DNA from: an uncultured delta proteobacterium
GTDB taxonomy: Bacteria; Desulfobacterota; Binatia; Bin18
Direction of reading: 5' to 3'
DNA length: 46,686 nucleotides
Assembly (NCBI GenBank): GCA_963733195.1
Contig: CAVTCR010000061.1
Span: 1-46,686, forward strand
Program-made: the position numbers and the translations under genes
In this document: one piece after another, positions 6,587-44,526 of the stretch
Layout of the letters: each line of letters begins with the position of its first letter
Position numbering within the stretch: position 1 is the stretch's first letter
Notes under the pieces: generated by a model
Databases searched by the model: none
What the model was told of the DNA's origin: nothing
The model's input: only the letters and a program-made list of their open reading frames with translations

Positions 6587-7958
6587 GGCTCTTCTCCAAA
6601 GTGAGTGGGTAAATTGCACATGATTTTAGATCTCCGGAAGCATGCAGGTGAGGATCTTCAGACGCAGATACTCCTCGTCACGCAACCCGTAGGCGCGGCG
6701 CTGGAGGACCCGGATCTTATTGTTCACCCCTTCGACGAATCCCAAGGCGACCTTATTGTCGGGGTGACAATACGCGGCAATCCCGTCCCAATGGCGATCA
6801 ATCAACGCGGCAAACTTCTCATACGGCCGCAGGCGTTGCCACTTCAGGGCCGCCCGCCAATTCTCAAAGAAGCGCCGCGCCCAGCCTTCCTTCTCATAGT
6901 CCCACAATTGGCCGAAGGACTCCTTGAGCAAGTAGGCGGTGTTCAGCCGCTTGTTCGCGGCCAGCAGGACCTTCAAGCTGTGCCGCGCGTCGCTCGTGAG
7001 ATTCGCCCGATGCGAGAGCAGCGTGTACTTCTGCCCCTTGATGTAGCGCCGGTCTTTGCCGCTGAGCCGCCGGTACTCGGCCTTGCGCACGGCGTCGAGG
7101 GCGTCGCCCAGATGGCACATGATGTGAAACTTGTCGAACAGGATCGCTGCCTGCGGTGCATGACGTCATGGTGACGTTGCGAAACGGCTTCCACATATCC
7201 ATTACCGCCAAGCGAATCCCTGCGGTCTTCTTCTGCCCCAGCCAGGCATAGAACTCACCCATACTCGCTTCCGATCGGTCCTGTCCGCCGAACCACAGCA
7301 CGCGCCGTCGGAGCAAGTCGCTGACCACGATCCGATAGGTATGGCCTTTGCGGATCGCAATCTCGTCGATGCCGATGACACGGGGGCCTGGCGTGCCCGC
7401 TCTCCGCAACTGCTCACGCATGTACTGCTTCTCCAGCTCTTTGACCGTCTTCCAATCCAAGTGCAGTTCCCGCGCCACATCGCGCAGCGTGGCCGTGCGA
7501 CACCGTCGCCCCACAAAGAAGGCAAAGCGGTTGGTATAGAAGGGATTGTCGGCCAGCCAGGGAATCTTCTCTTGCTTCACGGCTCCGCACCGGAGGCACC
7601 AGACGCGACGTACCTCGATCTCCAAGTACACGCGCGTATCGCCACACGACAAGTCGCGGACCTGTCTCACTTTGTGATCGTAGAAGGTCCGGGCCGCCGT
7701 GCCACACACCCCACAGCGTGTTTTTTTCCGCGCCGGACCAGACACAAAATGCGGGCTCTGGGATCACCGAAGACTCCCCGCACGGTCGCGCTCGGGCGAA
7801 ACCCAGCGAAACGATATGTATCGATCAGTCGTCGCAGTGTAGGCATTGCGCAAGCATGCCACGTTTTTCCACACTGCAACACTCCGCAAACACTGATCCA
7901 GAGCCACTTTCCTACCTCTCAGTTCGACTTTTTTACCCACTCGATTGGGAGAAGATCC
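6587..7958 (-). mobile_element. ISL3-family insertion sequence
   Basis: 27-bp imperfect terminal inverted repeats GGCTCTTCTCCAAAGTGAGTGGGTAAA / GGATCTTCTCCCAATCGAGTGGGTAAA (4 mismatches); imperfect 8-bp flanking duplication (tgggtttc / tttgtttc); ISL3 transposase inside. Confidence 0.9.
6626..7846 (-). CDS. ISL3 DDE transposase (split over three frames)
   Basis: Zinc finger CGVCG...VWCLRCG, IGIDE, AVMDMWKPF, FDKFH, VEGVNNKIRVLQRRAYGLRD; frame changes at the A7 run 7721-7727 and near 7165. Confidence 0.9.
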
Positions 7959-10665: not shown

Positions 10666-10830
10666 AGGAGACCTACCGAAGGAATTACGATGTATTGCCC
10701 ACCATTGTGACATGAGGAGACAGCAGGAGCAACGGACAAACAACAAGCAGCCACTGAGCGTTTCGTAGCCTGAGGAGGGTAGTATCCCCTCCTCAACGAT
10801 TCTCTCGACGTTCGCATCGTTTCCTTAGCC

Positions 10831-11420
10831 TTAAAACAACGGTCCCATCACCTCGACCTTGACCTCGCCGTTGTTGATCGCCGGGGCCAGGATATTCATC
10901 AGTTCCATGCGTTGATTATTGGTCAGCTGCACCAAACGCGGCAGCGGAAGGTCTCCTTGTCCTCTTCGGTCCAGCGTTTGGCCGCCACGGCGGTCGTCAC
11001 CACACTCGATGCACTTTGATACGCCTCGCGATTCTCCGGCGTATTGAGTATTTGGGCTTCGGCGATTGCTTCTTCTTTCGCCCGCTGCGCCTCGGGACTC
11101 TCTTGCGCTACTGCGTTACGGACTTCTTCGCGGATGATTTGCGCGAGGTCTTGGCGTGAGATCTCAGAGTTCGCTGCTGCAGTTACGCGGGTTGGTTCAG
11201 GCCGTGCGTCATGCGTTTGCTTGACTTGCAGGGCTTGCGTCAACGCCATAACCGCTTGTTCGAGTTTTGCGAACCGTTGATCACTCTGAGCGTCAGTATG
11301 GGCTGGGGGCTCCGGCAGTGGCGGAAGTTGAGTCATCCAGGCAAAAACTCCTATACCCAGGATGAGGCCCATACTCACCGTTATAATCGTCCGCCAGATT
11401 CTTTTGTATTGCTGTGTCAT
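10831..11420 (-). CDS. Membrane-anchored GPLF protein, copy 2 (frameshift near 10935)
   Basis: ORF 10923-11420 has an N-terminal TM helix; the shifted frame ends ..EVMGPLF-TAA at 10831. Confidence 0.8.
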
Positions 11421-11521
11421 AATTTGTTCCCTTTCTTAAAAATGTGTGTGGAGTGTTTCTTTCACAACAGCAGCGGGAGCACTGTCACACCCCCGCCGCT
11501 ATGCTTTCGCCGAGTTAGTGC

Positions 11522-11903
11522 TCATTTGAGGTGGTAGATAAATTACTCAACTCGCAGGTAACCGCAGGTTGCAGTTCCCTTGGCGACAGCGAAGTGAATG
11601 AATGAGAAGTCAGTCATCGACCTGACCGCGGCTGCCCATCTCGTGTCGTTCTTATTACAGACGAAATACTTGCCAGTCTTGTCTCTTGCTGAACAGGTGA
11701 CGGCCGGATTGTGAGCGACACAGCTAATGTATTGTAGGTTGTCCGCTACTATAGCGCGCCCCTACCATGCTCCCATAGGCGAAGTCGGTTCCGACTTGAA
11801 CCTCGGGATGCTACGTGGACCCCGCCCATGCGGGGAAGCTATGTCGAACTAGGGCTACGCCAAGCATTGCTGTGATAATGAAGTTCTTCAGACTCGCTTT
11901 CAT
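11522..11903 (-). CDS. Small secreted Cys-containing protein A4 (beta subtype), frameshifted
   Basis: MKASLKNFII..PAWAG, PEVQVG, GSM.GARY, QYISC, TCSARDKTGKYFVC, MTDFSFIHF, ..YHLK-stop read across frames. Confidence 0.7.
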
Positions 11904-11990
11904 GATGTTGTTCTCCTTTTTTGAAGGGTAAAGAATGCTGTTAATGAAAACTTTCGGGATCTCCTGTAGTGACGGAATGAGCGTCGCTAC

Positions 11991-12402
11991 TTATTTGAGC
12001 TGGCTGGACCATCGTAGATCGTGATGTCGCTGCACCGTCCGGTGAAGGTCTGCCGTAATGAAAATGTACGAAGAGTCAGTCATAGCCTGGACTACTTCTT
12101 GCAATTTAGGATCTTGACACCCGCAGAAAAAAGTATTGCGTATGCTATTGTCGCGAGCAAAACACGATGACCAGACTGTCACTCGGATTAGTCGATGCGA
12201 CGATGAGCATCCGATATATTGATTGCTATCCGCACTGTAGCGTGCACTCGTCAGGCTTCCGTATGCGTAATGGTAAAATTGGTTGGAATAGATGGCGGAC
12301 CTCGGCGGTGATCGTTCGGCCGGCCCACGTCGGACCGGTCGTGGCCAACAAGGCCATGCCCAGAGCCACCAGACCGAGAATGTTCTTTAGATTTGCTTTC
12401 AT
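11991..12402 (-). CDS. Small secreted Cys-containing protein A3 (alpha subtype), frameshifted
   Basis: MKANLKNILGL..PTWAG; ARYSADSNQYIGC; CFARD; QAMTDSSYIF; ends QLK-stop. Confidence 0.7.
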
Positions 12403-12451
12403 GATGTTATTCTCCTTTCTCAACGGTTAAAGTTACTCCGTCAGTCGTTGC

Positions 12452-12850
12452 TTATCTGAGGTAGGCAGAGAAGTTCTCGAACATTCAGGTAGGTGCAAGA
12501 GCCGGGACCCGGGCCTGGGCTGAGGAGAATGGGATGTAGGAGAAGTCAGTAATTGCTTTAACCGCTGCTGCCAATCCCGGATTGGTGCTCGTGCAGACGA
12601 CTGACTTCCCAATCTTGTCCTTCGCTAAACATGTAACGAACGGACTGCTCAGTATTCGAAAAGCTACAGCCGATGTATTGTTGGTTATCGCCAGTATAGC
12701 GCGCCCCTGCCATGCTCCCGCGGGCGTCAACGTCGCTTACTTGCACCTCAGGGAGGCTCACTTCGCCTGCCCACACGGGATAGCTATTTGAGACCAGGGC
12801 CAACCCAAGACCGTCGCCATACCGATGAGTTTCCGTAGATATGTTTTCAT
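12452..12850 (-). CDS. Small secreted Cys-containing protein A2 (beta subtype), frameshifted
   Basis: MKTYLRKLIG..PVWAGEVSLPEV; GSMAGARYTGDNQQYIGC; TCLAKDKIGKSVVC; AITDFSYI; ends SAYLR-stop. Confidence 0.7.
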
Positions 12851-12937
12851 GATGTCGTTTTCCTTTCTGAGAAGATAAAGAATAGTGTTGACGGAACGTT
12901 TCGACTCTCTCGTCAGTGACAAACCCGGTGTCCTTAC

Positions 12938-13351
12938 TTATTTGAGGTAGACGGAGCAATTGTAAATCGTGATGTTGCCGCACTTTCCGGGGCGCGATCC
13001 GCAGCTCGAAGAAAATGTACGAAGAGTCAGTCATTGCCTGGACTTTCTATGTCCTTCGGGTCATGACTCCCGCATTGAAGAATAGTTGTCTGTGCTATCG
13101 ACGGCAGTACAATACACGTAAGGTAACGGACAACGGGGCCGCGAAAGTCTATCTCGCAGCCGATGGATTGCTAGCTATCCGTACTGTAGCGCGCACCCAC
13201 CATGCTTCCAGTCGCGTAAAGGAATACCGTTGCGATTACCCACGTAGACCTCAGGGGTACTCACTTCGCCCGCCCACGTCGGAATAGCGTTGGTGAACAA
13301 GCCCAGACACAGAGCCGTCAGACCGAGAATTTTCTTCAGATTTGTTTTCAT
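12938..13351 (-). CDS. Small secreted Cys-containing protein A1 (alpha subtype), frameshifted
   Basis: MKTNLKKILGL..PTWAGEVSTPEV; ARYSTDS; AMTDSSYIFF; ends SVYLK-stop. Confidence 0.7.
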
Positions 13352-13428
13352 GTTGTTATTCTCCTTTCTGAAATAGAACGTTGTTTCCTCTGCGCCTTTG
13401 CCATTCGTTGATTTATTGCGTGGATCAT
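13348..13428 (-). CDS. Putative 26-aa leader peptide translationally coupled to A1
   Basis: AAAGGAGAA RBS, then MIHAINQRMAKAQRKQRSISERRITT-TGA, with the stop overlapping the A1 ATG (ATGA); homologous 5-prime sequence near 40221-40303. Confidence 0.4.
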   Translation of the reverse strand: MIHAINQRMAKAQRKQRSISERRITT

Positions 13429-13478
13429 GTTGATGTTCTCCTTTCGCTGTCGCAATGCACATGTGTTCTGTTAAAGAG

Positions 13479-13564
13479 AGGCGTAACAAATGGTGGAACA
13501 ATTGTTCACGGTAAAAAGCGAGGCAAAAGGCGCAACCGAGCAGGAGAGGACGGAACAATTGTTC
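13479..13564 (-). promoter_or_regulatory. Conserved 31-bp element, copy 2 (13479-13509), plus distal palindrome (13553-13564)
   Basis: AGGCGTAACAAATGGTGGAACAATTGTTCAC, with a second GAACAATTGTTC 57 bp away. Confidence 0.85.
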
Positions 13565-13645
13565 ACTTAAACCGCAAAAGATTAGCACGACAAATTTGTC
13601 ACTCTGAGTGAAGTATAAAAATCTGCATTCAATCCGTCGGACGTG

Positions 13646-14451
13646 TCAGTTGTAGCCCAGATGAAATCCGGGCTCGTTGTTCCGAGCTGCTGATGTTGGG
13701 GAATAACGGAGGGCCACAACGGTACTGTCGTCTCGTCCACCCCGGGCATGGGCTAACTCCACCAACACGTCACAGGCTTGCTGTAGGTTGGTTCCTGCCT
13801 TCCACACGATGGCGTGGATCTCCTCGTCGACGAGGTCGCGATACACACCATCACTACAAATGAGAAACAGGTCCTCAGCCTGTGGAGCTTCAATCCGCAC
13901 GGCTCGGGATGAACTTCGGGTCCTACTCCGATCGCTTGGGTCAGAACGTGCCGATAACGGCTCGTCCGCCATTCTTGTGGACTCATCAGTCCGGCGCGGA
14001 CGAACTGCTGGGCGACCGTGTGATCTTCGGTCAATTGCTCCAGGACAGCCTCGCGCAAGCGATACACCCGCGTGTTGCCGACATGGCAGATCACGGCGCT
14101 TTCCTGGGATGAGTCGAAGGCCACAGCCGCAACGGTGGTCCCCATGCCCAGTAACTCTAACTGGCGATGACTCACCTCCAGCACCTGCGTATGTGCACGA
14201 TATACGGCATTAAGCAGGGGCTGACTGGGCGGCAACGGCGTAGGGCTGGGTGTCTGGACCTGCACGTCTGTGTCCAGCAGTGTGTGTCGTATCGTCTCGA
14301 CGGCGAGGGTGCTGGCGAGAGTGCCCCCCCGCTGTCCTCCCATGCCATCGGCAACGACATAGGTCTGCAGATCAGGAAAGAGGCCGAAGGCATCTTCATT
14401 ACGTGGCCGCACTTTGCCACAATCGGTACGAACTGCAGTGGTGATAGACAT
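13646..14451 (-). CDS. PP2C/PPM-family Ser/Thr phosphatase-like protein, copy 1 (frameshift near 13905)
   Basis: TDCGKVR..NEDA, VADGMGG, GMGTT, LTEDHT, LTQAIG, LICSDG and GGRDDSTVV; the usual GDSR motif reads GNTR. Confidence 0.85.
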
Positions 14452-18449: not shown

Positions 18450-20888
18450 TTAGTTCCCGCTCATACTCGTCGGCACCGTGACGGTGGCTACCGCCTCTTT
18501 CGTGTTGCCCGAGCGGTCAGTGGCACGGTACGTAATGGTGTACACCCGACCGGTGTTTTGCCCACCCGTCCTACGCTCGGCACGCACCGAGAACGAGCGA
18601 TCATCCGTGCCGACCGCTGCCCCCACAATATCCGGGCTCTTTGTCTCCATGACCCAGAAACCCGTTTCCGGTTCGTTACTGGTCACCGAACCAGCGTGAC
18701 CGTTGGCTGTGGGATCACAATTGTCGCGTCACCGTGATGGTCGCCGCACATGGTCCTGGAGGTCATGACTGGGTGACCACAGGATCTGTCGGGGAGACCG
18801 TCACCGTCAGGGTCGGCGGAGCAACGTCAAGGATCTCCAGCGGTGCTGAACCGGAAGCCGTCAGTTCATTGCTCACCATATCCTTGAAGGCCACGGAGGC
18901 ACTCACACTAGTAAAATCACCTGGACAAGCGTTCAGTGGCACGGTGAAGTTGCTCGTCCGCGTCACGAGCCCGCCAACCACAACCGCATTCAGATCTTCC
19001 ACCTGCGTTCCCCCGTCCGGTCGCGTATCAGTGAAGACCACCTGCAACGCCGGGCCGCGCCCTTGGTTGCGGATCTGCGTGGTGTAGGTGAGCAGGTCGC
19101 CAGGCTTAGCGGTCGCTGGACCGGTCTTATCGACCACGACCCCGGGTGCTGCCATTGCAGCCATAAACTCCCGCGACTCTTGGATCGTCTCCGGCTCAGC
19201 CTCGTCTTCGACTGGAACACCCCCGCTGCCACCACTCGCAATAAACACGAGGCTATACGTCAGATTGGGCCAGTCATCGAAGCCAGTGAGAGGAGTCGAT
19301 GAGGATCGCTCCATCGCCATTGATGTCAGCTTGGATATTTGCGGTAAACGGAGCCGGACACGTCGCACCTTCGAGTACGTCGCCAGCATTCCACTTCCGC
19401 GGACCGAAACCGAGTTGCCCGGCATCAATGCCGATACATTCATCCAGATTGAGTTCAGCCAAACTTGCCGGAACGAAGGGAGGTAAGGCAATGCGTGAAT
19501 AGTCACATCCGCCGGGCAAAAATCCATTCGGACTCGACGGAACACTACATTCTTGGAACGCATAATTCATGACACTGAGGTAGTTTGGTTTATCGTTGAT
19601 AAGCGCTTGATCCCCACCATGAAAGAGGCCAAGTGTATGACCGAGTTCATGCAGGAACGTCCCTGCTTGCTGTTGAACATTCCCGACCGAGAAACCGTTG
19701 GAGTCAGTCTCCCAACACGGGTCACCATTCGGCTTCACGCCACCGAGCGTCACGAAAAATTCATTGCTCGGAATCGCGTTCGCCTCGCCGCTGGTACAGT
19801 CATTCGTGGCCAGCCGACGTTGGTCTGGTGACCAAAGATCGCGTACCGAAAGACAAGCTCTCGTCGGTGGTCGAAAAAGGCCTCCCGCAGGGTAGCAAAC
19901 TCGGTCCCGCTTCCTTTCGGACTATTGAAGCCTCAATAATCTCGTTGCCAGCTTCGGCAATCTGCTGCCCGCCTCCACCAAAGTCGCCAACTGTTCCTTT
20001 CACGCCGCCAGACCCTGAGACGGGAAAGATCGTCCCCGCTCCGAATAACGGACCGGTATCGACGTGCAGCTGCACGCCGGTGGTCCCATCAGGATTAGCG
20101 ACTGGGGCATTGGCGAAGGCGAGTATGGCATTGCTCATGGCGGCAGTCCCCGGGCAATGAGAATGGTTTCCGGCGACCAAACAATCCACCTCGACGAACA
20201 CATCCTTGCGCAGCGGATGGGCTCCTAACGCAGGAAGGTTGACGTCGATAGTTGTGTCAGTATCAGCATTGAAGCCGTTCAGTTCCCAGCTATCGAGCAA
20301 GCCGTCTTCATCCGCGTCGCCAGTCGCGGACAGCACACTGATGTCAAAGCAGACCCTCACCGGCCGCTCATCACTCCCCTCTACGCAACTCTGTGGCCAG
20401 TTCACATCCCCGCTCCATTTCCCCGTCGCCAAATTCACGTCGAGCACTAACGTGAAGCTGCCTGAGGTGGGGTTAATGTCGCCCTGGTCATCGTCGTCAT
20501 CAAGAATGTTATCGTCGCTATCCCAGATTTGAATCAGCACGGGGACGGTGTCGAGCGTGAACGGGACCTCCTGAGTTAGCACCCATAGAGGATTAGGATA
20601 AATGGGGCCAAAGGGAACGGGATACCCGGTCGTAGGCTCAAAAGGAAAATCAAAGTGGTCGGCGAAGGTGTCATGCTTCGTCCCATTGATAATGGCGACG
20701 GCATAGAGGTCGCCAGGGGAGATGAAGACGTCGCCGTCCATTCCGAGCTCAAGATCCCACACTTCTGTGATGGTAACGGTGACCGGTTTGGTTTGTGCAT
20801 GACTGATGGTTGGCAACAAGAGCGTTACGGCGGTAACGCTAAGAAGCAGAGCAGATAGAACACGACGAAAATTGTGCAATGTGAACAT
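18450..20888 (-). CDS. Large secreted multidomain metzincin-type zinc protease, copy 2 (frameshifted)
   Basis: ORFs 19800-20888, 19274-19753 (GTFLHELGHTLGLFHGG..SVMNY = HExxHxxGxxH plus Met-turn), 18763-19563 (DKTGPATAKPGDLLTYT, DUF11-like) and 18450-18686 form one gene. Confidence 0.8.
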
Positions 20889-23991: not shown

Positions 23992-26137
23992 TTATCGCGG
24001 TTCCCCGGTCATGTCGTTGCGCGATTTATGAGCCCGATGTTGATTGTACAGAGACCGCATCAATTCCTTGAAGTCGTCGGTGTCGGCACTTGAGGAAGCC
24101 TGGACATCACGAGTGAGGTTTCGTGGCGGTAGTGGTGGCACCGGAATGCTCGGGATGTCCTGCCGCGGGGTTGCCCGTAGCACCATCGACAGATCGTTGG
24201 CTGCGGCCATGCGTTCACCCATGTCTGGCGGATAGGCGCTCATGAAACGTCGAGCAATGGTCTTGGCGATTGCGGTATGATCGAAGACAACATTACTCAC
24301 CGCACGTTGGTCAACCCACGGCGAGATTACGAAGGACGGCACCCGCACGCCGTAGTGGTCGATACCCGACACCGGTTTGGCCTTCTCCCGGAACAGTAGC
24401 GGATTCACATGATCGTAGAAGCCGCCGTGTTCGTCGTAAGTGATGATGAGCAAGGTTTTGTTCCACTTCGGGCCTTGCATCACCGCATTCACCACTCTTC
24501 CGATCAAGTTTTGCCCGGCACCAATATTGGCTGGTGCGCCGTCGTCATTGTCCTCTCCGTCTGGCTCATCGATGAAGTTGGGATCGATAAACGATACGGC
24601 CGGTAAGGTTCCTGCTTGTGCACTGGCAAAAAATCCCCTCGCCGGGTCATTGGCCTCAACAATAAAAGTATCATCACTGGAATACCGTGCGAACAGACGC
24701 AGAAAACAGTAACGGTGTTCGAAATAACGCCAACTCACTGCCGTGTTCGGTAAGATGATCAAAGAGATTCTTGGTGTGCACTGGCCTGAAGGCATCACCG
24801 TGAGGATTGTTGACCTCGAAGTTGCCGAGGGGATCGCGGTTTAATCGCCCCGTCAACGTGTAGAATCGATTCGGAAATGTCGGCCCAGGGTGGGCGGCAA
24901 ACCAACGTTGACACACGAGAAACTGACTGGCTAAATCGTCATATACCGGCACTCGATCCTTATTGTGGTACCCCATAATCTTGCCAGGATCTTCCCCTTC
25001 GGCTTCGTATTGCTTGGCGAAGGCAGCGACAAATCCATCCATCCTACCGCCGCCAATCTGATTCATGATCGGTTCGTGGCCATGTGGCGGACTGTGTGTG
25101 AATTCTGCATTCGGCAACAGGAAAGACGGGTAATCACGTCCGTTGTAAGGATTCTTCTCACCTCCACGGAGACCATCGATATCGGACCGTCCGCCTTCTT
25201 TGCTCAAATAGCCAAGCATGTGATCAAATGAGCGGTTCTCCATCATCAGCACGACAATGTGATCGATGTTGGCGAGGCGACCCGGGTCCAGTGGGGGTTG
25301 AGGATTTTCAGGGAACGGCTCCAGTTGGCCGGGCGGGATAATATACTGAATCGTCAGGGTTTGGTCATTTCCCTCGACCCCAACCACATGGAAATCTCCC
25401 CCCACCAGCCAGCGCGTCGCCATGCTATTCAGCTTATCGCGGTGTTTCGTCAGGGCCTCAGTAAGCTCGCTATTAAACTTCTTCTCAATCCGTGAATCGA
25501 ACACCCCGTCAGGCAACCCTGACACATCAACCGAGGTGCTGGTTTTGATCAAATTCTTATCCGTTCTCAGACTCACGAGACCAGCACTGCTGTCGTGCTC
25601 AAAAAGAAACTGCACGCGAATATTGAAGTAGGTGAAATTGACGTTGGGATGGTTATTCACAATCAGTTCGACCCCGTCGGTCTCAAAACGGATATCTACA
25701 GCCACTCCTACTGGCGAGCCAGGGACGACATTCGCCAGAAGTGCACGACTATTCACGCCAGAGAGGTAGACATCGGGGTTAATCGGGCCAGGATAATCCG
25801 CCTCAAGTTGGCCAAGATCGTGGACACCATCTAATATCGACGTGTACCCCTTCGTCGCATCATCAAATAAGACGTCGACCGTACTATGACGGTGGTCGCC
25901 ACTCCCAAGGTTATGGAGTTTCACCTGGAATATAGGCCGAGGTCGCTCATTGAAAAACTGGTTGAATTTACGCTGTAAAAAATCGAGCGAGATCACCTTC
26001 TGAAGAATACGCCCGGGCGGGAGCGCACCGACGAGCTCACGCACCGATACAGGAAACGACGCACCCTGTTGATGGGCTACTTCCTTAATACTCACGGCTT
26101 GTCCGAAAGCGCCTAACGCTTCACGCACGCTGGTCAT
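23992..26137 (-). CDS. Phosphoesterase / phospholipase C family protein with a long N-terminal extension (frameshift near 24720)
   Basis: IDHIVVLMMENRSFDHMLG, GPTFPNR, LPAVSFIDP, TLLIITYDEHGGFYDHV, GVRVP.FVISPW and FDHT. Confidence 0.88.
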
Positions 26138-26165
26138 AATCATTCTCCTTGTGTATAACTCAGAG

Positions 26166-34026: not shown

Positions 34027-37000
34027 CTAACCCTGCCAGGTGATCGGCATGCGGACATCAGGGGTGTACGAACAGTACGTGCCCGTTTTGATGGTGGTGG
34101 CCAGATGCTGGCCCAAGGCCGCATGATGTTCACTGATCTTGCGCAGGGCGATCTTGATGGCGCGGGTAATGTTCACCCGTGCGCGTTCCGCTGGCGAGCC
34201 TACTCGCCGCGCCCGCCCGCCAAGCCCGACTGCACTAGCCAGTTCGTGGGTGAGAAAGTCGATCTCGCGGCCAGCCGCTCGCTCCGGCCCAGGTCATGAA
34301 ATTGCTGCGCCTCGGCCAGTTCCTCTCGCAACTCGGTCAGACGCTGCTTGTAGGCCGCTCGCGCCTGGGGATCAAGGATTTCCCCGGCATCACTGAACCC
34401 TTCGGTGTGGTCAACTGGCAGGCTAGGGTCTTCAAGGAGAGGAGCTTCACCGGAGCCTTCCCATTGAGATCCGCAGCTTACAGTGATCAGGGTGAGGACA
34501 TGGAACTTCTTGGTGCGGATGTTGCAGCAGATGGGCAATGTAGTGGAGACCGCGGGCATCTTTGAGTCGACAGGTCGCGCCGGCAAAGCTTACCGTCCAG
34601 TAGTCGCCTTCATGATGGAAGGCATTAGGGATTGGCACGTCTGGAGTCTGAGGTCCAACGTTCGATGCCGGAAGACCTGGTACGTCTAGAGTCGCGCGTC
34701 CAGGAGTGAGGGGTGAGGTGTGTGAAGAAAGGGGAGCGGGGGTCAGAGGTCGGGGCGCGGTAATTTTTGACTTTTGATCTTTGACTTCGGATCTTTGACT
34801 TTCCTTTTCCGCTTTTGCGTTGCCGCCCACCTCACGCAGCAATGCCGCCGCCTCTTGCAAATCCTTCGTGTCAAAGCCTTCGGTAAACCAACCGTAGATG
34901 TCTTCAAGCAAGGTACGAGCTTCTCTGAGCCTCCCTTGGTTCTGCCACAAACGCGCCAGACTTGTCGCCGCGCGCAGTTCCCATGACTTGGCTCCCTGCT
35001 CTCGCGCAATGGCAATGGCTTTCTGGAAGCACTCCTGTGGAAAGGAAGGAGTAATTTTTTCTTCTTCTCCCATTCGGAGCGAGAGCTCTCCTTTCAGGCG
35101 ATATAATTCCGCTTCGTAGAATCGTTCGCCGTTGCGCGCAGATACGACAAGCGCTTCGTCGATCGCTCGTAGACCTTCCTGGATTTGCCCCGTCTCCCCA
35201 TACGCACTTACCAGCAAAGCCAAGAATTGCGACTGCCATATGCCAGTGCCAGTCGCCCGAAGAGCCGCCAAGCCAGCTTGAGTTTGCGCAAGTCCTTGTT
35301 CTTTTTTTCCTTGCGCAATCAGCGCCCACCCCAGCACAGCCGGACTGTACGCCGCCCACAGGGCGAACTGTTGTTCCGTGGAAAGAACAATCGCTTCCTC
35401 CGCAGCCTTTTGCGCCGCTATTGGTTCACCCCGGAATTGATGGACCATGGCATTGCCACTCAAGGCCCAAGCGAGGGTTTGCCCATGCGATAGATCCTTG
35501 CTTAATACGAGCGCTTCCTGACTCAACTGCAAAGCTCGGTCTGGATACCCCAGCAACCAGTAGAGAAATCCCGCATGAATCCGGCAGCACGCTCCAGGGT
35601 CGTGGCCGCCGTACACAAAGGTCTGTGGATAATGCCGGTCAGGTTGGTAGAGACGCAGTCCTTGCTCTATATGGAACTGGCATGTCGCTAAATCTCCGCG
35701 AGCGACCAACGTTGTCCATAGAGCATGATGCGCCTGGAAAGAAAGATCCGAGTCTCCAATGTGTCCCGCAAACTGGAAGAGCTGACTCCCCAACTCTTCC
35801 GCGGCACTTAGATCCCCCGCCACTGCATGAGAAATCCATAATCCCCACAAGACTGCAAAAAGATCAGGCGGATCGTCGAGTTCTCGGCATAACGAACGCG
35901 CCTGTTGATAGTGGCGTCTTACCTCTGGAGCCCCATACCCTCTCAGAGCCAGCATGGGAGTACCGAGGGCCAGGCGAAGCGTCAATTCCTGGCGAGTCCG
36001 CTCCAAAGAGGCAGGGAAACGAGCAAGCAACGTCAAGGCGTGGGTGAGGTGACGAAACGCCTCGGCATTCGCCGAGCGTTGCACGGCAGTACGGCCAGCG
36101 CGTTCCGAGTAGGAAATGGCACGGTGTATCTCTCGTCCCTTTTCAAAGTGCACAGCGAGTTCTGTAGCAATCTCGCCCACCCGCTCGCCATAGGCCGCCT
36201 CTTTACGCTCGGCAATGCGACGATGTAATTGCACCCGACGCACCTCAGCCGACTGCGCATACACCACCTCGTGATACAGCGCATGCCGAAAACTGTAGCG
36301 GCCGCTGATCGTCCCATCCGGCCATTCTGCCACTCCCGCCGCCCGCAACCACTGCCCTGTGCGTGCCAGCTGCTCACACTGTGACTCGATCTCCTCACTG
36401 TCCGTTTGCAATCCTGCAGTGACTTCCGCTGCGGCAAACTCCACCCCCACCACGCCGGCAACCTCTAGCAGCCGCCGTTCTGATTCGGGTAATCGCTCCA
36501 GCTGCCGCTCGATCAACTGCCGCAAACTATCTGGTATGCCTTCGCCGACAGTTTCGACTGTGTCGGCTCGGAGTCTCCACTGTCCCTCATCTTCGACAAG
36601 CGCACCTTGCCGGACAAGATCGTCCACCGTGGTGACGATAAATAACGGATTCCCACCCGTGCGACGGTGGAGCACAGGTGTCAACTCGTGTAGAGACGTC
36701 CGGCAACTCGTCCCTCCGGCAAATCGTTCGGTCAGATACTCCCCAATCGCCTCTTCGGCTAACGGTGTGAGCCGTAGCTCTTCACATTGCTGATGCGCTA
36801 GCAGCTCTTGCACGATCCCACGCAAGGGATGAGTGCCAGCCAGTATATCTGCCGGGCGATAGGTACCCAGAATGAGCAGCTTGGCCGGCTCGCGGCGTCG
36901 CGCCATGTAGGTTACCCAATCCAACGTCGACACATCACTCCAATGCAGATCCTCCAGCACCACCACCAACCCCCGCTGCGTGGTAAACCCTTCCGCCGCC

Positions 37001-37473
37001 TCGGCCATCTCGCGTAGCATCCGCTCTCGACTTACCCCCTGCACATGTTGCTGCAGTCGATCAAATGTTTGAGGCTCTAGAAGGCCCGGCAATTGCGCCA
37101 GCCAACTCGGCGCATAGCGTTGCAGTGCCTCGATACGCCGCTCACCACCCGGGGCGCGGCAGAGGCGTGTGGTCGCTTCCAGCAGCGGCAGATAAGCTTC
37201 CCCCGGACCGTACTGCTCCACGCACTGCCCAGAGGTAATCCGGATATCGGTTCGCGCCTGCAACTGCGCCAAAAAGGCATCGACCAGCGCCGTCTTCCCA
37301 ATGCCAGGTTCGCCGGCCAAAAACACGACTTGCCGTTGGCCCTGCAACGCGGCCCCCAGTCGCTGATGGAGCGCGGCGAGTTCCACTTCGCGTCCGACCA
37401 GCGGCACGGCCAAGCGCTCACTGGCGGGCGTCGTGACCTGCTGGGGGAGGTGAAGAATCTTTCCACTCATCAC
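34027..37473 (-). CDS. STAND-type AAA ATPase - TPR protein with C-terminal putative DNA-binding domain; frameshifts near 34500 and 34265
   Basis: VGRE, GEPGIGKT, LEDLHW, TGGNPLF, FRHALY, WELRAATSLARLW; C-terminus EGDYWTVSF..RGLHYIAHLL..ERARVNITRAIK..IKTGTYCSYTP..WQG-stop. Confidence 0.85.
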
Positions 37474-37623: not shown

Positions 37624-38208
37624 TCAGAATAACGGCCCGTTCACTTCGACCTTGACCTCGCCGTTATTGATCGCCGGGGCCAGGATATTCATCAGTTCCA
37701 TGCGTTGATTATTGGTCAGTAGCCCAAACGCAGAGCGGAAGGTTTCCTTGTCCTCTTCAGTCCAGCGTTTGGCCGCCACGGCGGCCTGCACCACGTTTGA
37801 CGCGCTTTGATACGCTGCACGATTCTCCGGTGAATTGAGAATTTGGGCTTCGGCAATGGCTTCTTCTCTCGCGCGCTGGGCCTCCGGACTCGCTTCAGCC
37901 ACGGCTTGGCGGACTTCGTCACGGATGAGCTGGGCGAGCGCCTGGCGTGAGACCTCAGGGTTCGCTGGCGTGGCCACTCGCGTGGGCTCAGGCCGTACGC
38001 CTTCCGTCTGGTTGACCTGCAGCGCTTGAGGTCAACGCCGTCACGGCTTGCTCCAGTTTCCCTAACCGTTGGTCATGCTGGGAGTCGGTGTGGGCGTGGG
38101 TGTCCGGCAGCGGCGGGGGTGGGGTGCCAGACCACCGCGCCGACGCCCACGAGGATGCCATACTAAGATAAATCGACTCCATAATCCTTTGTTCTGCGCT
38201 GTCATCAT
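37624..38208 (-). CDS. Membrane-anchored GPLF protein, copy 3 (frameshifted)
   Basis: MMTAQNKGL.. start; DQRLGKLEQAVTALT; ORF 37624-37977 ends INNGEVKVEVNGPLF. Confidence 0.75.
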
Positions 38209-38373: not shown

Positions 38374-38807
38374 GCATCTGAGGTGGCTCCGCAGGGCCCT
38401 GTGCGGTAGCTACTATTTGCTAGAGATCAGTCATCGCCACCGCGGCCAGAGGGAATGTAGATTTGCGAGCAGTCAAGTCATCGCACTTGCCTGTCTTGTC
38501 CACGCTAAATGCGCACATGCGTATACTCCCACAAGCGAAAGACTTGCCGTTTTGTCCCTCGCTGATACTATGGTAATGCTCTTAGTCCTTACTAAAAGCA
38601 CAGCCGATGTATTGTTGGTTGTCCGTACTGTAGCGCGCCCCCTGGCCACGTTGGTTGCTACTTTGGCAAACGTTGCGGTTCCTCACTTCCGAACACGCAG
38701 AGGAGACTACGCGAGCCCGCCCACAGGCCAGGGACCGGCTGCACTGCCGTGCACAAGGCCAAGTTCCATGAATACGAACCGATGAGTTTCTGTAAATACG
38801 CTTTCAT
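38374..38807 (-). CDS. Small secreted Cys-containing protein B4 (beta subtype), heavily error-ridden or degenerate
   Basis: MKAYLQKLIG start, GARYSTDNQQYIGC, ARDKT, ..HLR end; exact stop uncertain. Confidence 0.55.
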
Positions 38808-38887
38808 GATGTCGTTTTCCTTTCTGTCAGGGTAAAGAATGCCGTTGACGGTTAAAGTCACTCAAGTGACTAAACGGTTGTCCTTCC

Positions 38888-39301
38888 TTATTTGAGCAGG
38901 TCGGAGCTATTGTCAATCGTGATGTCTTTGCACTCGCCCACGTTGCCGGTGCTACCTGTAGAGAAGTAATGTACGAAGAGTCAGTCATTGCCCGGACCAT
39001 TTCTAGGAACTTCCAATCACCACTCCCACAGATAAGAGACCTGCCTGCACTGTTCGTGGCAAGACGTGGTCCACGAATACGAACTGAGAGTGAGGCTCTA
39101 CACCCGATCTGTTGCCTGGTTGTCCGCACTGTCGCGCGCGTCTACCAGGTTTCCGCTTGCCGTACTCCAAAATTGGTTGTCTCTATGATGACAGTATTGG
39201 TACTACTTACTCACTCTGCCTGCCCACGTCGGAACAGTCGTGGCCAGCAGGGTCATGCCCAGCGCCGCCAGACCGAGGATATTCTTCAGATTTGCTTTCA
39301 T
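38888..39301 (-). CDS. Small secreted Cys-containing protein B3 (alpha subtype), frameshifted
   Basis: MKANLKNILGLAALGM; ARDSADN.QQIGC; SLICGS; RAMTDSSYI; ends LLK-stop. Confidence 0.7.
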
Positions 39302-39361
39302 GATGTCATTCTCCTTTCTCAAAGGTTAACATTGTCTGCATCTACGCCGTTGCGTCGTTGC

Positions 39362-39768
39362 TTATCTGAGGGTTTTCAGAACTGTTCTCGACAGTCAGGT
39401 TGCTCTGCAGGAACGACCGTCCGGGGCCACGTTGAATTGGATGTACGAGAAGTCGGTGATCGCCTTGGCCGCTGCCGCAAACTGCGACTCGGAGCTAGAA
39501 CAGAAAAAGGATTTGCCGTTCTTGTCCGTCGCTGAACACACAACGGACGGACCGTACGTATTTGAAAAGTGACAGCCGATGTATTGTATGCTGTCCGTAC
39601 TATAGCGCGCCCCTGCCATGCTCCCCAAAGCCCAAATACGGGATGTGTTATTGAAACCTCAGGGAGGCCAAATGACCCTGCCCACGCCGGGAGGCTATGC
39701 GAGACCAGGGCCAACCCAAGAACTGCCGTACCGATTAGGTTGTGTAACTTGTGTAACTTCGCTTTCAT
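39362..39768 (-). CDS. Small secreted Cys-containing protein B2 (beta subtype), frameshifted
   Basis: MKAKLHKLHNLIG..PAWAG..PEV; GSMAGARYSTDSIQYIGC..VCSATDKNGKSFFC..KAITDFSYIQF..SC. Confidence 0.75.
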
Positions 39769-39813
39769 GATGTCGTTTTCCTTTCTGAGAGGTTAAAGTT
39801 GCTCCCGCCACGC

Positions 39814-40224
39814 TTATTTGAGGTGGTAGGAGTAATTGAAAATCCTGAGGCTGTCGCAGTTTGCGTTGGCGCGATTCCCCACGAAGGAAATGTACGAAGA
39901 GTCAGTCATTCCTTCGAGCTCTTGTACGTGCTTCGGGTCAAAACTAAGACAGAAAGCATGATTGCCCGCGCTGTCACGGGCATCACATCGGATGGACGGA
40001 GACTGAAAATCAGAATTAGCGCTTATGGAACACACGATGAATTGCGTGCTGTCCGCACTGTAGCGCGCGCCGACCATGCTTCCGCTTGCCCAACTGTAAA
40101 CCTGGTTGCCTCCTATGGCGACCTCAGGGGTACTCACACAGCCTGCCCACGTCGGAACGGTGTTGGCCAACAGCGTCATGCCCAGCGCCGCCAGACCGAG
40201 GATGTTCTTCAGATTCGCTTTCAT
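39814..40224 (-). CDS. Small secreted Cys-containing protein B1 (alpha subtype), intact 136 aa
   Basis: Signal peptide to PTWA-G; GSMVGARYSADSTQFIVC, RCDARDSAG, FC, MTDSSYISF, NC and YHLK. Confidence 0.85.
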   Translation of the reverse strand: MKANLKNILGLAALGMTLLANTVPTWAGCVSTPEVAIGGNQVYSWASGSMVGARYSADSTQFIVCSISANSDFQSPSIRCDARDSAGNHAFCLSFDPKHVQELEGMTDSSYISFVGNRANANCDSLRIFNYSYHLK

Positions 40225-40354
40225 AATGTCATTCTCCTTTCTGAAAGGTTAAAGGTTATTCCATCTACGCCTTTGCCATGTCGCCGATTTATGCGTGGAT
40301 CATGTTTTGATTCTCCTTTCGCTGTCGCGGTGCATCAGTTTGTTCTGTGTAGAA

Positions 40355-40385
40355 AGGCGTAACAAATGACGGAACAATTGTTCAC
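40355..40385 (-). promoter_or_regulatory. Conserved 31-bp element, copy 9
   Basis: AGGCGTAACAAATGACGGAACAATTGTTCAC, 131 bp upstream of ATG 40224. Confidence 0.85.
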
Positions 40386-40711: not shown

Positions 40712-43700
40712 CTACCCCTGCCAGGAGATGGGCATACGAATATCAGGTGTGTACGAGCAGTAAGCGCCGGTTTTAATGGTCGTGGCCAGATGCTGTCCCA
40801 AGGCCGGATGATGCTCACTGATCTTGCGCAGGGCGATCTTGATGGCGCGGGTGATGCTCACTCGTGCGCGTTCCGCTGGCGAGCCCACCCGCCGCGCCCG
40901 CCCGCCAAGCCCGACAGCACTAGCCAGTTCGTGGGTGAGAAAGTCGAGCTCCGCGGCCAGCTGCTCACTGCGGCCCAGGTCATGAAATTGCTGCGCCTCG
41001 GCCAGTTCCTCCTGCAGCTCGCTCACCCGCTGCTTGTAGGCCGCGCGCGCCTGGGGATCCAGCATGTCCCCGGCGTCGCCCTCGGTGTGATCGAACGGCA
41101 GGCTTGGGTCCTGTAAGGAATGCACTTCAGCGAGTCCCTCGCTCAGGTCTGCACTTGTAGTGATCAAACTGATGACATGGACCTCCTGGTGGGGCTGGTG
41201 CAAGAGCTGGGCAATGTAGTGCAGGCCGCGGGCCTCTTTGAGGCGACACGTCGTGCCTGCAAAGCTCACCGTCCAGTACTCGCCTTCCGGGCGGAAGATA
41301 TTGGAGGTTGGGGAGCTGGCGTCTAGGGTCTGGCGTCTAGGGTCTGGCGTCTGATTCTCCTGACTTTGGACCTTAGCCTCTTCGACTTGGCTCACCTGTG
41401 CCTGCGGCACTGGCGCAGGCAAGACAGGCTTTGGACTTTGGACGTGTTTTGACTCTAGACTCTGGACTCTGGACTCTGGTTTCGATTTGCTCTCTGTCCT
41501 CACGCTGCCGCCAAGAGTAACAAGCAGTGCCTCTGCCTCTCGCAAGTCCTTGGTGTCAAAGCCTTCAGTGAACCAGTGGTAGATCTCGGCCAGCATACTT
41601 GCCGTGCTTCGGTTATCTTGCCTTGGCATTGCCATAGCCGTGCTCAAGCTCATCGGCGGCGCGGAGTTCAAGGGACTTCGCTTGCTGGTTACGGGCAATT
41701 TCGATGGGCTTGGTGAAAATATGCTTCGGCGTCGCCTCGGGGATCGGGGGTCAGGGGTGGGGGTCGGTGTCTTCAGACTTGTCTTGACCGTTTAGACTTC
41801 TGGACTTGCCTGGGACTGAAGCGTTAGCGTTCCCTTGAGCCGATACAGCTCTGCGTCGTAGAATCGCTCTCCGCGTTGCTCAGCGATCTCTAACGCTTCG
41901 GCCAGCACGGTCAACCCTTCCTCAGCCTGATTTGTTATGCCATACGCCCCGGCGAGTAAACCCATAAAATACAGTAGCTCTAGCTCTAGTCCCCCTTTGC
42001 GTACGGCGTCGATCCCTTGGCGGAGCTGAGCAATGCCTTCCGCTCCATTTCCTTGCACGGTCAGCAGCCACCCGCGCATCATCCTTCCCCACAGCAAATA
42101 GTAGGGGCATCCCTGCTCCTGACTGAGGGTTACCATGCGTTCGACATGCCGCTCGACCGTGGACAACTCACCGCACTCTTGTGCGACGCCAATTGCACCC
42201 TCTAACGCAAACGCTTCACTGAGAAAGTGCGACAGCTCGCGGGCCAGGGTCAATCCTTTGTCGCAGCTCCGGCGTGCTTGCTCTGGATACCCGAGACTCC
42301 ACAAGGCCCAGCCAGCGCGGGACGAAAGAGAAGACTCCAAGATCCTGGGCGATGTTGGAGACGCGGGGATTATGCTTGTCAGGATCATAAACAGTCAACG
42401 CTTGCTCGAGATGATAGCGCGACGCAGTAAAGTCACCAAGGAAATACAAGCCGTTTCCCAAGGCCATGTGAGCTTGGAGGAGTAGCCCCGACTTCTGTGC
42501 TTTCTGAGCAAGCGTGAGCAGTTGCTCCGCCAGGGCCAGGCCCTTTTGCACTTCCCCACGCAGCTCATACACCATACACAGGCCAAAGAGGACAGAGGCG
42601 AGTTGTGGAGACTCACCACACTGTTGACACAACTCGTGTGCCCGCAGGAAGGCGCGCTCCATCTCCTGCAACGCTATGCGACCCCCGATCGCGTAGAGAG
42701 AATTGGCGAGTGCCAGTTGCAGCCGCACTTCTTGTTGCATGCGCTCGGGGCCGTCCGGCAGCAGAGTGAGGAGGTCCAGACCTCGCTTCAAATGACTCAG
42801 CGCTTCCTGATGCGCGCTACGGCGTGCAGCGGCCTCGCCAGCCTGCCGGTGATACTGGACAGCCTTGGCACCCTCCCGTCCTGCCTCAAAATGGACGGCA
42901 AGTTCAGCAGCGATTTCCCTCGCTCGCTCGCCATACGCAAGGGCTTTGCGTTTCGCGATGCGCCGATGCAGTTGAAGTCGGCGCGCCTCTGCTACCCGTG
43001 CATACACCACCTCGTGATACAGCGCATGCTGAAAACTGTAGCGCCCGCTGAGTGTCCCATCCGGCCACTCCGCTACGCCTGCCTCCCGCACCCACTGCCC
43101 CGTGCGTGCCAACCGCTCACACTGCGCTTCAACTTCTTCACTGTCTGTTAGCAGACCCGCCGCCACCTCCGCTGCGGCGAACTCCACCCCCGCCACACTA
43201 GCCACCTCTAGCAGACGCTGTTCTGGCCCAGGTAAGCGCTCCAGTTGTCGATCAATGAGTTGCCGCAAGTTGTCCGGTACGCTTTCGCAGAGGGCCTCGG
43301 CGGTATCGGCGCGAAGTGTCCACTGGCCTGCATCTTCAGTAAGCACACCTTGGCGGATGAGATCATCCACGGTGTTGACAACAAATAACGGATTCCCGCC
43401 CGTGCGGCGATGAAGCATAGGCGTGAGTTGTTGTAGGGGCACAGCGCGGCTTTTTGTGCTCCCACGTCAGCCGTGAGTCGTACTGTCAGATACTCGCCAA
43501 TCGCCTCTTCGGCGAGCGGAGTGAGCCGCAACTCTTCACATTGGCCCCGCGCTTGCAAATCTTGTACTGCCCCATGCAAGGGGTGATTGCTGGCCAGTAC
43601 GTCTGCTGGGCGATAAGTGCCGAGGATGAGCAGTTTGGCCGGCTCGCGCCGCCTTGCCATATAGCTTACCCAATCCAGCGTCGAGACATCGCTCCAGTGT

Positions 43701-44526
43701 AAGTCCTCCAGCACCAGGACTAAAGCGCGAGTGGTGGTAAACAATTCCACCGCCTCAGCCATCTCTCGTAGCATGCGCTCGCGCTTCGCTCCTTGGACAC
43801 GCTGCTGCAAGAGGGTACGGTCCTCGGGGTCGAGCAGTCCCGGCAGTTGTACAAGCCAACTTGGGGCGTGGCGCTTCAAGCCTTCAATACGGCGCTCACG
43901 GCCCGGTCCTCGACAGAGCCGCGTAGTTGCTTCCAGTAATGGCATGTAGGCTTCACCCGGACCGTATTGCTCCACGCACTGGCCGGAAGTGATACGGACA
44001 TCGTCGCGATCGCGGATCTGCGCGAGAAACGCGTCGACCAGGGTTGTCTTACCTATACCCGCCTCTCCAGTGACAAACACCATCTGCCGCTCGCCGGTCA
44101 GGGTTTTCTCGAACAGGCAGTGCAATAGGTGCCAGTTCTAGCTCTCTTCCCACCAAAACAGAGTGCTGAGGACTAAGGGCTGAGGACTGAGTTGGCGGAA
44201 GGGGGCTACTGGCTACTGAATACTGACTACTGGCTACTTCTTTATACTGCGCTGACTACTAGATGCTGGACACTCGACTCTGGACTAGGGTGATGGGATG
44301 GGAAGTGCGGAGCGATAAGCAATGACCGTAAAGCAGGTATTCGAGCCGTAGCGGATTGCTCTGCGTCGCAATTGCGACAGAACTTGAGACGTGCCGGAGT
44401 GGGCTGGCCACAGGTTGCACAGGGTACCTGCTTGGGGCTGAGTGAAGCCCCACATTCACCACAGAAGGCCACCTTGGGCGGATTCCAATGGCCACAGGCT
44501 GAAGAACCAGGGGTGATCTCTGGCAT
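40712..44526 (-). CDS. Double zinc-ribbon - AAA ATPase - TPR STAND protein with C-terminal putative DNA-binding domain (several frameshifts)
   Basis: ACGH..FCGECG..CATCG..FCRNC; GEAGIGKTT; LEDLHW; TGGNPLF; AELYRLKG; WFTEGFDTKDL; C-terminal domain closely similar to that of 34027-37473. Confidence 0.8.

Follow-up and report, generated by a model that had tools for sequence, protein, structure and literature searches.

On the minus strand of a contig from an uncultured delta proteobacterium (Desulfobacterota; Binatia; contig CAVTCR010000061.1 of assembly GCA_963733195.1), four short tandem genes, here called array B (units B1 to B4), lie with a fifth gene at 37.6-40.4 kb, and the first of the four is the only one with an open frame. 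The question raised by this locus is whether it is a group of decaying pseudogenes, the product of a recent duplication or a working operon obscured by faulty sequence. The window, that is the whole stretch of DNA analysed, is this entire contig (C61) of 46,686 nucleotides (nt), one of 87 contigs in a genome (G000) of 6.9 Mb that is 93% complete. We consider it rather likely that this genome has a conserved, lineage-restricted five-gene operon for small exported proteins in three copies, among them array B. It appears comparably likely that the breaks in B2-B4, in the fifth gene and in the two other arrays (array A of the same window and one on contig C45) are consensus errors of a noisy assembly, which is probably a long-read metagenome assembly, and the operon is probably intact in the living organism.

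Organisation of array B and its conservation in relatives

Read along the minus strand, array B consists of a 30-nt motif, a leader of ~130 nt, four tandem units of ~130-136 amino acids (aa) each in the order alpha, beta, alpha, beta, and a gene termed GPLF, the product of which has an N-terminal membrane anchor, a helical region and a conserved C-terminus (...VKVEVNGPLF). The 5' ends of B1-B4, at 40224, 39768, 39301 and 38807, share a ribosome-binding site (RBS) and start codon of the form AGAAAGGAxAA...ATGAAA. Signal-peptide type alternates between units, with ...PTWAG in the alpha units B1 and B3 (alpha type MKANLKNILGLAALGMTLLA.TVPTWAG) and a ...PAWAG-like ending in the beta units B2 and B4 (beta type MKAKLHKL..LIGTAVLGLAL....PAWAG). 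The B1 protein has a signal peptide followed by a 108-aa mature part with four cysteines; it is 95% identical to the homologue P0001, shows zero frame events against its best reference and retains 38 of the 39 columns conserved in the family.

The family is present in four of 30 relatives, namely G001 and G002 of the same genus and G003 and G018 of the same family, and was absent from all 250 genomes sampled across the phylum. All 18 matches in these four relatives are free of stops and 17 of them are full length. The order alpha1-beta2-alpha3-beta4 is found in G002, G003 and one G001 locus, partial arrays occur on metagenome contigs, and the G018 array has two genes. A GPLF gene stands 3' of the array in G002, in G003 and, of the G001 loci, in the one without the four-gene order (operon a), and none was seen after operon b of G001 or the G018 array. 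A quick maximum-likelihood tree of 27 intact proteins from nine loci, plus B1, separated alpha from beta first (Shimodaira-Hasegawa-like approximate likelihood ratio test, SH-aLRT, 86) and gave each operon position its own clade, with SH-aLRT values of 86, 88, 96 and 93 for positions 1 to 4 respectively. By its fixed order, its position clades, the upstream motif and the downstream GPLF gene, array B fits the operon of the relatives. The best references of the broken units are G003 beta1 for B2 (identity 84/129), P0090 for B3 (97/133) and position 4 of G001 for B4, while the GPLF protein of array B (GPLF-B) is identical to its G003 orthologue at 148 of 192 residues.

Array A has the same plan, with unit starts at 13351, 12850, 12402 and 11903. 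The third array (C45:57990-59405) holds three units, starting MKTYLKKIIGG..., MKAHLKNIIGG... and MKAHVKNIIGG..., and a GPLF-like gene, all with broken frames. The layout that an earlier note on this DNA had described for array B, as a mirror of array A, is thereby borne out by the unit starts, signal types and motif. So are the junctions that it quoted: the 3' ends of A1 and B3 have CTCAAATAAG.AAGGAC in common, and A2 begins MKTYLRKLIG and B4 MKAYLQKLIG. Its statement that the mature proteins are clearly diverged stands for the units themselves but not for their reading frames, of which B1 alone is open while B2-B4, A1-A4 and both GPLF genes are broken.

The leaders of the two arrays (40260-40330 and 13400-13460) have GCGACAGCGAAAGGAGAA...ATGATCCACGCA in common. 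Both carry an RBS-like site and a short open reading frame (MIHA...) before the first alpha gene, and the versions of A and B are unequal in length by a single base within an A run. An Rfam scan of the window returned zero families at the gathering score.

Frame breaks in the arrays and across the genome

Breaks (Table 1) were counted by translation in three frames and by aligning the units, with frameshifts allowed, to the best intact relatives. B1 is the sole open frame among the units of arrays A and B, and about one of 11 units is open genome-wide. The window's units hold a total of 27-31 breaks in ~2.9 kb, or ~9-11 per kb; GPLF-B has three and GPLF-A two or three, despite which both GPLF genes are 77% identical to the orthologues of other genera. 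The broken units retain their length and show no large deletions. Of the 39 conserved columns, 36 are kept in B3 and 37 each in A1 and C45 unit 1, compared with a mean of 37.2 in intact proteins, and the apparent column losses in B2 and A2 are normal beta-type residues. Since the broken units keep both conserved residues and lengths, indels must far outnumber substitutions, and this disfavours neutral decay, under which 3-6 indels per 400 nt should come with loss of conserved residues.

Frame damage was also found across the genome. The rpoC gene (C71:133111-137073) extends over at least three reading frames, with pieces of 665, 711 and 97 aa; a surplus of 1 nt and a loss of 1 nt can be seen in its sequence. 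It is a single open frame of 1367-1680 aa in G002, G003, G009 and G015. Four of 48 ABC_tran domain matches are damaged (one with a stop, three truncated). A frame-switch detector based on a codon-usage Viterbi algorithm, with one model applied to every genome, reported 3317 events in this genome (0.48/kb; 1729 or 0.25/kb under strict settings), 23 events in 220 kb of the same-genus G002 (0.105/kb; strict 0.041) and eight in 80 kb of G017. The events are clustered, as 47 of 3429 2-kb segments hold at least six of them where the Poisson expectation is ~1.6. Paralogous sequence overlaps 38 of these 47 hot segments versus 33 of 94 cold ones, and a contig end lies within 5 kb of 12 of the 47 versus 10 of the 94. 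The hot spots inspected were STAND paralogues (cyclase/AAA_16/TPR), a sulfatase and, at a contig end, E/F genes of type II secretion. Residual indel errors in long-read metagenome assemblies give a similar picture, with many 1-2-nt breaks in conserved genes that cluster in paralogous families; the arrays differ in their denser breaks (9-11 per kb) and in having a clean gene in the middle of the region.

Comparison with contigs from soil sequencing runs may point the same way. At most 14% of the region's words occur in any one public run, and the four that were compared (X1, X4, X5 and X7, the last an RNA library) offer relatives only, 88-97% alike, in short contigs from other strains; stretches outside these contigs are uninformative. 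Where the contigs are 95-100% alike over short stretches, 1-2-nt indels separate them from the window at break sites. An X1 contig has one base fewer at 38029 in the GPLF gene; at 38968 an X5 contig has an indel, and the loose end of an X1 contig clipped at this site shows, by our reading, the same additional letter; X1 contigs differ by indels at the B3 sites 39118 and 39201; and in B2 a 1-nt difference at 39370 is seen in X4, X5 and X7 contigs and a 2-nt difference at 39402 in X5. Two X5 records are particularly clean, record 21 with 0 substitutions and one gap in 47 nt, and record 22 with one substitution and one 2-nt gap in 93 nt. Over the B1 and GPLF stretches, by comparison, a contig has 13-34 substitutions and 0-1 frame-relevant gaps. 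A scan of metagenome contigs with B1 gave five loci, all at most 59% identical and too distant for a count of indels to substitutions.

Several observations weigh against assembly error as the cause. B4 keeps 25 of the 39 conserved columns, and this poorly aligned unit may also be truly degenerate or a divergent subtype. Five in-frame stops look like substitutions (one in A1, two each in A4 and B4). The break density of the arrays is at least 20 times the genome average, yet the 411 nt of B1 are clean; strain heterogeneity at a variable locus is our guess at the reason for this accumulation, and repeat collapse is unlikely as an error source because the identity between units (58-72%) is too low. 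Adjacent breaks are opposite in sign in 14 of 18 array pairs, and event pairs genome-wide are opposite in 332 of 754, so that no such alternation exists there. The detector returned 38 events in 100 kb of G015 (0.38/kb; strict 0.10), a genome of different GC content to which the model is less well suited, so that the false-positive rate varies with codon usage. Finally, X7 contigs span 38968 and 39402 without the X5 indels, but they carry other, unplaced gaps and are ambiguous evidence.

The alternative that survives best is genuine decay, in which the three operon copies would be pseudogene arrays. Once the system, or its regulators, had ceased to work, short indels and a small number of nonsense mutations would have built up in all units but B1, the one still under selection. 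We regard this as possible though unlikely. It would account for the difference between the one in 11 units open here and the 18 stop-free matches of the relatives, for the excess of breaks around a clean B1 and for the substitution-type stops and strong degradation of B4, and the neighbouring STAND gene, both GPLF genes, one PP2C gene and the phosphoesterase gene are broken as well. However, with the essential rpoC broken in the same assembly, breaks cannot be trusted at face value. Many indels with almost no substitutions or large deletions, conserved columns kept in all but B4, and near-identical contigs of other runs that differ just by indels all speak against decay, and the alternation in sign is not predicted by neutral decay either. 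Assembly error therefore remains the reading that we prefer for the breaks, and with it apparent pseudogene arrays in this genome should not be trusted, as even rpoC is frameshifted. Claims of decay, rapid divergence or selection drawn from the window would be built on noise, and the ratio of nonsynonymous to synonymous substitution is meaningless on such frames. The possibility raised in the earlier note that the divergence is mostly sequencing error thus has two answers: the divergence between paralogues is real, and the frame damage is probably error.

As a consequence of the sign alternation, several units are back in their starting frame; a net shift of zero modulo 3 in B3, A2, A1 and GPLF-B was considered as a signal and is not significant. 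Split into two overlapping frames are also the PF04185 phosphoesterase gene (23992-26143), the metalloprotease-like gene (18763-19753), a PP2C phosphatase gene (13646-14451) and an ISL3 transposase gene (6626-7745).

Table 1. Features of the two arrays and their flanks in the window, and break counts for the units of the third array
Feature	Position	Strand	Frame breaks	In-frame stops	Remarks
Conserved promoter/operator-like motif GTGAACAATTGTTCCGTCATTTGTTACGCC	40356..40385	-			Palindrome GAACAATTGTTC inside, at 40372-40383
Leader, ~130 nt, motif to B1	40225..40355	-			Resembles array A leader
B1, intact alpha, position-1 type	39814..40224	-			136 aa, open frame
B2, beta, position-2 type	39362..39768	-	3	0	Breaks near 39647 or 39625, 39405, 39374
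B3, alpha, position-3 type 'SYSWTT...GSGDWKFL'	38888..39301	-	6	0	Two frames alternating
B4, beta, position-4 type	38374..38807	-	3-6	2	Most damaged unit
GPLF gene of array B	37624..38205	-	3		+1-type breaks at ~38160, 38123, 38029
Array A (A1-A4 and GPLF-A)	10800..13565	-			Motif copies at 13496 and 13553; every frame broken
A1			5-6	1	
A2			4	0	
A3			5	0	
A4			1	2	
C45 units 1-3	58.0-59.4 kb of C45		4, 7, 4		
STAND gene downstream of array B	34447..37473	-			AAA_16 + TPR (Pfam); C-terminal domain cut by frame change
STAND gene upstream of array B	40712..44125	-			AAA_16 + TPR; split over at least three frames

Kinship among the units

At the nucleotide level the mature parts of the window's units are 58-72% identical to one another, and the signal parts of the alpha units 80-92%. 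Some junctions cut across the kinship of the mature parts, as the mature part of A2 is closest to that of B2 (70%) and its upstream junction to that of B4 (82% identity over the 45 nt upstream, the top off-diagonal value for B4). This suggests some exchange of sequence among units. At four joints (window 38778-40343), soil-run contigs of relatives link the leader straight to the region upstream of B2 or B3 or reorder the units. These joints rest on flanks of 24-75 nt, and may reflect either a strain-variable composition of the array or contigs from paralogous arrays.

We consider a programmed or targeted process very improbable, in which silent cassettes would recombine into the expressed B1, the broken units would be read by frameshifting or a local mutator would produce indels. 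The position of the single intact copy first behind the promoter with the damaged copies after it, the conserved 5' parts and mosaic junctions, which suggest recombination between units, and the reordered joints in relatives would suit a process of this kind. Against it, the four genes are all intact in relatives, the same type of damage occurs genome-wide, rpoC included, and the breaks lie away from long simple repeats and slippery sites. To our knowledge, the known silent cassettes are also unlike the damaged units, each of which still has an RBS, a start codon and a signal peptide.

The earlier note had further proposed that the alpha-beta pair was the unit of duplication. The tree is compatible with this, with the qualification that the event did not happen here: the same position order and clades in other genomes place it before these genera split, and the alpha-beta pair was probably duplicated at that stage. 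A recent tandem duplication of the pair inside this genome, which the alternating order and the resemblance of the A1-A2 junction to that of B3-B4 more than to any other would favour, deserves almost no weight given that the four positions are separate clades common to other genera and that the mature parts are just 69% (B1 vs B3) and 66% (B2 vs B4) identical.

Protein family, predicted fold and complex

No Pfam family at E<=0.01 and no NCBIfam family at E<=0.1 was found for B1, nor any Pfam or NCBIfam family for the beta and GPLF proteins, and the ESM Atlas returned 'hypothetical protein' clusters only. Homology searches gave 178 B1 homologues at E<=0.01 among 186 candidates and 67 homologues of an intact beta protein at E<=0.001 among 80 candidates; the homologues of both types are all annotated as 'hypothetical' and a Pfam domain is present in none of them. 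AlphaFold2 (AF2; predicted local distance difference test, pLDDT, 80.8) models B1 as an oligonucleotide/oligosaccharide-binding (OB) fold, a barrel of five strands with an interposed helix. No match at E<=0.001 was obtained by Foldseek against the PDB, and the best matches of a wide structural search were weak (Z<=5.2). They include single-stranded DNA-binding protein (SSB; Z 5.2), pertussis toxin S5 (1bcp_F; Z 5.0, root-mean-square deviation 3.3, 80 residues aligned), Stx2 B (Z 4.8) and the B subunits of cholera, heat-labile (LT) and typhoid toxins (Z 3.6-3.9).

A reading as B-subunit-like is more natural than one as SSB because the protein is predicted to be exported and bears cysteines. Like the B oligomers of AB5 toxins, among which pertussis S2-S5 are encoded in one operon, these are small proteins with a signal peptide, apparently exported, with potentially disulfide-forming cysteines and a predicted OB fold, and several paralogues are encoded side by side. 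There are clear differences too: the Z range is that of chance OB-fold likeness, with SSB as high, no Pfam B-subunit family is matched, the operon has no A-subunit-like gene and its fifth gene encodes a membrane-anchored helical protein, and the host is an uncultured soil bacterium. Membership of the AB5 B subunits was not assigned, in view of the lack of a B-subunit family by sequence and of an A-subunit gene. No enzyme family was found in the four paralogues or the GPLF gene by Pfam or NCBIfam.

The fixed presence of four paralogues within one operon suggests that they form a hetero-oligomer. Complex prediction for alpha1 and beta1 of G003 weakly supports this, with a score of 0.51 against 0.01 for the best control; passes of up to 0.60 are wrong more often than right unless the pairing was likely beforehand. 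At the mark used, 116 of 157 solved complexes pass, as do two of 215 mismatches, and the runs for this pair agreed in at least 98% of contacts with a partner pLDDT of at least 90. The portions available to us of the literature on Binatia/Binatota (metabolism, ecology) and on AB5 and OB-fold proteins contain no description of this family or of the motif. The family is thus undescribed, and it is narrowly distributed; its members combine a signal peptide and four cysteines with a predicted OB fold.

The palindromic motif

The exact palindrome GAACAATTGTTC occurs 13 times in the window (8921, 13496, 13553, 15054, 18112, 18176, 21038, 21102, 22649, 27750, 28894, 28947 and 40372) and nowhere else in the 6.9-Mb genome; even with up to 3 mismatches it was not found near the C45 array. 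The ~30-nt motif around it reads GTGAACAATTGTTCC.CCATTTGTTACGCC. All 13 copies have the same orientation and stand ahead of nine minus-strand units, which include the two arrays, two PP2C genes, the metalloprotease-like gene, the PF04185 phosphoesterase gene (split by a frame break) and genes for a beta/gamma-crystallin protein and an ICMT-like membrane protein. At four of the units there is a further, half-related copy upstream, 53-64 nt off. The same motif lies 5' of the arrays in G003, G001 and G018 and at the metagenome loci L038 and L039, and was not found near the G002 array within 2 mismatches. On this contig the motif would delimit a small regulon whose products are exported.

The palindrome fits GAAC-N4-GTTC, the form of a LexA box, and a role in the SOS response was considered and dropped; GAAC-N4-GTTC is absent within 250 nt upstream of three lexA-like genes and recA. 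The best lexA (C75, upstream of 11441) has a palindrome of the CTGT-N8-ACAG type instead, and the third lexA-like gene (C5) has two other palindromes, TAGACACGCGTCTA and ATAGACACATGTCTAT.

Flanking STAND genes

As the earlier note had stated, array B lies between two STAND genes, both on the minus strand (Table 1). The downstream gene is TIGR03903-like (E 1e-84, below the cut-off) with frame-switch events at 34523 and 34266, and events in the upstream gene were detected at 41620, 42295 and 43442. The AF2 model (pLDDT 85.2) of the last 200 aa of the upstream protein (40712-41320) resembles an OmpR-type winged helix into which a helical hairpin is inserted. In structural comparison it matched the DNA-binding domains of BaeR (Z 8.0), GlnR (7.4), CssR (7.3) and ToxR (7.2), with 84-96 residues aligned and nearly the whole of each domain covered, alongside many helical-hairpin matches of equal Z. 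Foldseek against the PDB gave none at E<=0.001 (best E>=0.8), and there was no Pfam or NCBIfam match, no Trans_reg_C at E<=1 and no BTAD. The domain, which also closes other STAND genes, has no Pfam model and belongs to a very large family, for which a search of the public protein library at E<=0.001 gave 12,518 representative clusters.

The claim that these genes encode DNA-binding proteins is therefore moderately supported, at the level of fold and not by any family match, and it is reasonable to call the C-terminus putatively DNA-binding. The further claim that the position of the array physically links regulators and targets is weaker: more than 100 paralogous pieces of the STAND family are present in this genome, so that adjacency is weak evidence for such a link. 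The proteins resemble STAND regulators of the SARP/AfsR and MalT types in joining an AAA_16 NTPase and a TPR sensor region to an OmpR-type winged-helix-like domain, and in adjoining their putative targets. They differ in that the DNA-binding-like domain stands at the C-terminus and has a helical hairpin of 55 residues inserted in it, that Trans_reg_C and BTAD are not matched, and that some paralogues have an N-terminal class III cyclase domain.

A model for the operon and its significance

Under the interpretation that we favour, of a conserved five-gene operon present in three copies, the 30-nt promoter/operator motif would drive alpha1, beta2, alpha3 and beta4 and then the GPLF gene. Each small protein has, behind a Sec-type signal peptide, a mature part of ~105 aa in which four cysteines are invariant and an OB-fold barrel is predicted. 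The four paralogues would be exported and assembled into a hetero-oligomer that acts as a binding module and not as an enzyme. We infer that a regulator that reads the palindrome may activate the array jointly with the remaining motif-bearing units of the contig (phosphoesterase, metalloprotease-like, beta/gamma-crystallin and PP2C); the flanking STAND proteins with their OmpR-like C-terminal domain are candidates for this role.

A more specific extension, which is speculative and quite unlikely, would be a new exported hetero-oligomeric OB-fold assembly of four subunits and a membrane anchor, similar to the pertussis B oligomer without an A subunit, within a STAND-switched regulon of secreted hydrolases; the STAND regulators would here read the 12-nt palindrome through their C-terminal OmpR-like domain.

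Behind the noise of this assembly there is a real unannotated family, of which soil metagenomes contain ~250 homologues and for which neither Pfam nor NCBIfam has a model. If its members do form one four-subunit complex, this would be a rare hetero-oligomeric OB-fold assembly from a non-pathogen, and if the more specific extension were true, uncultured Binatia-like bacteria of the soil would possess a secreted system for binding or attack that is so far undescribed.

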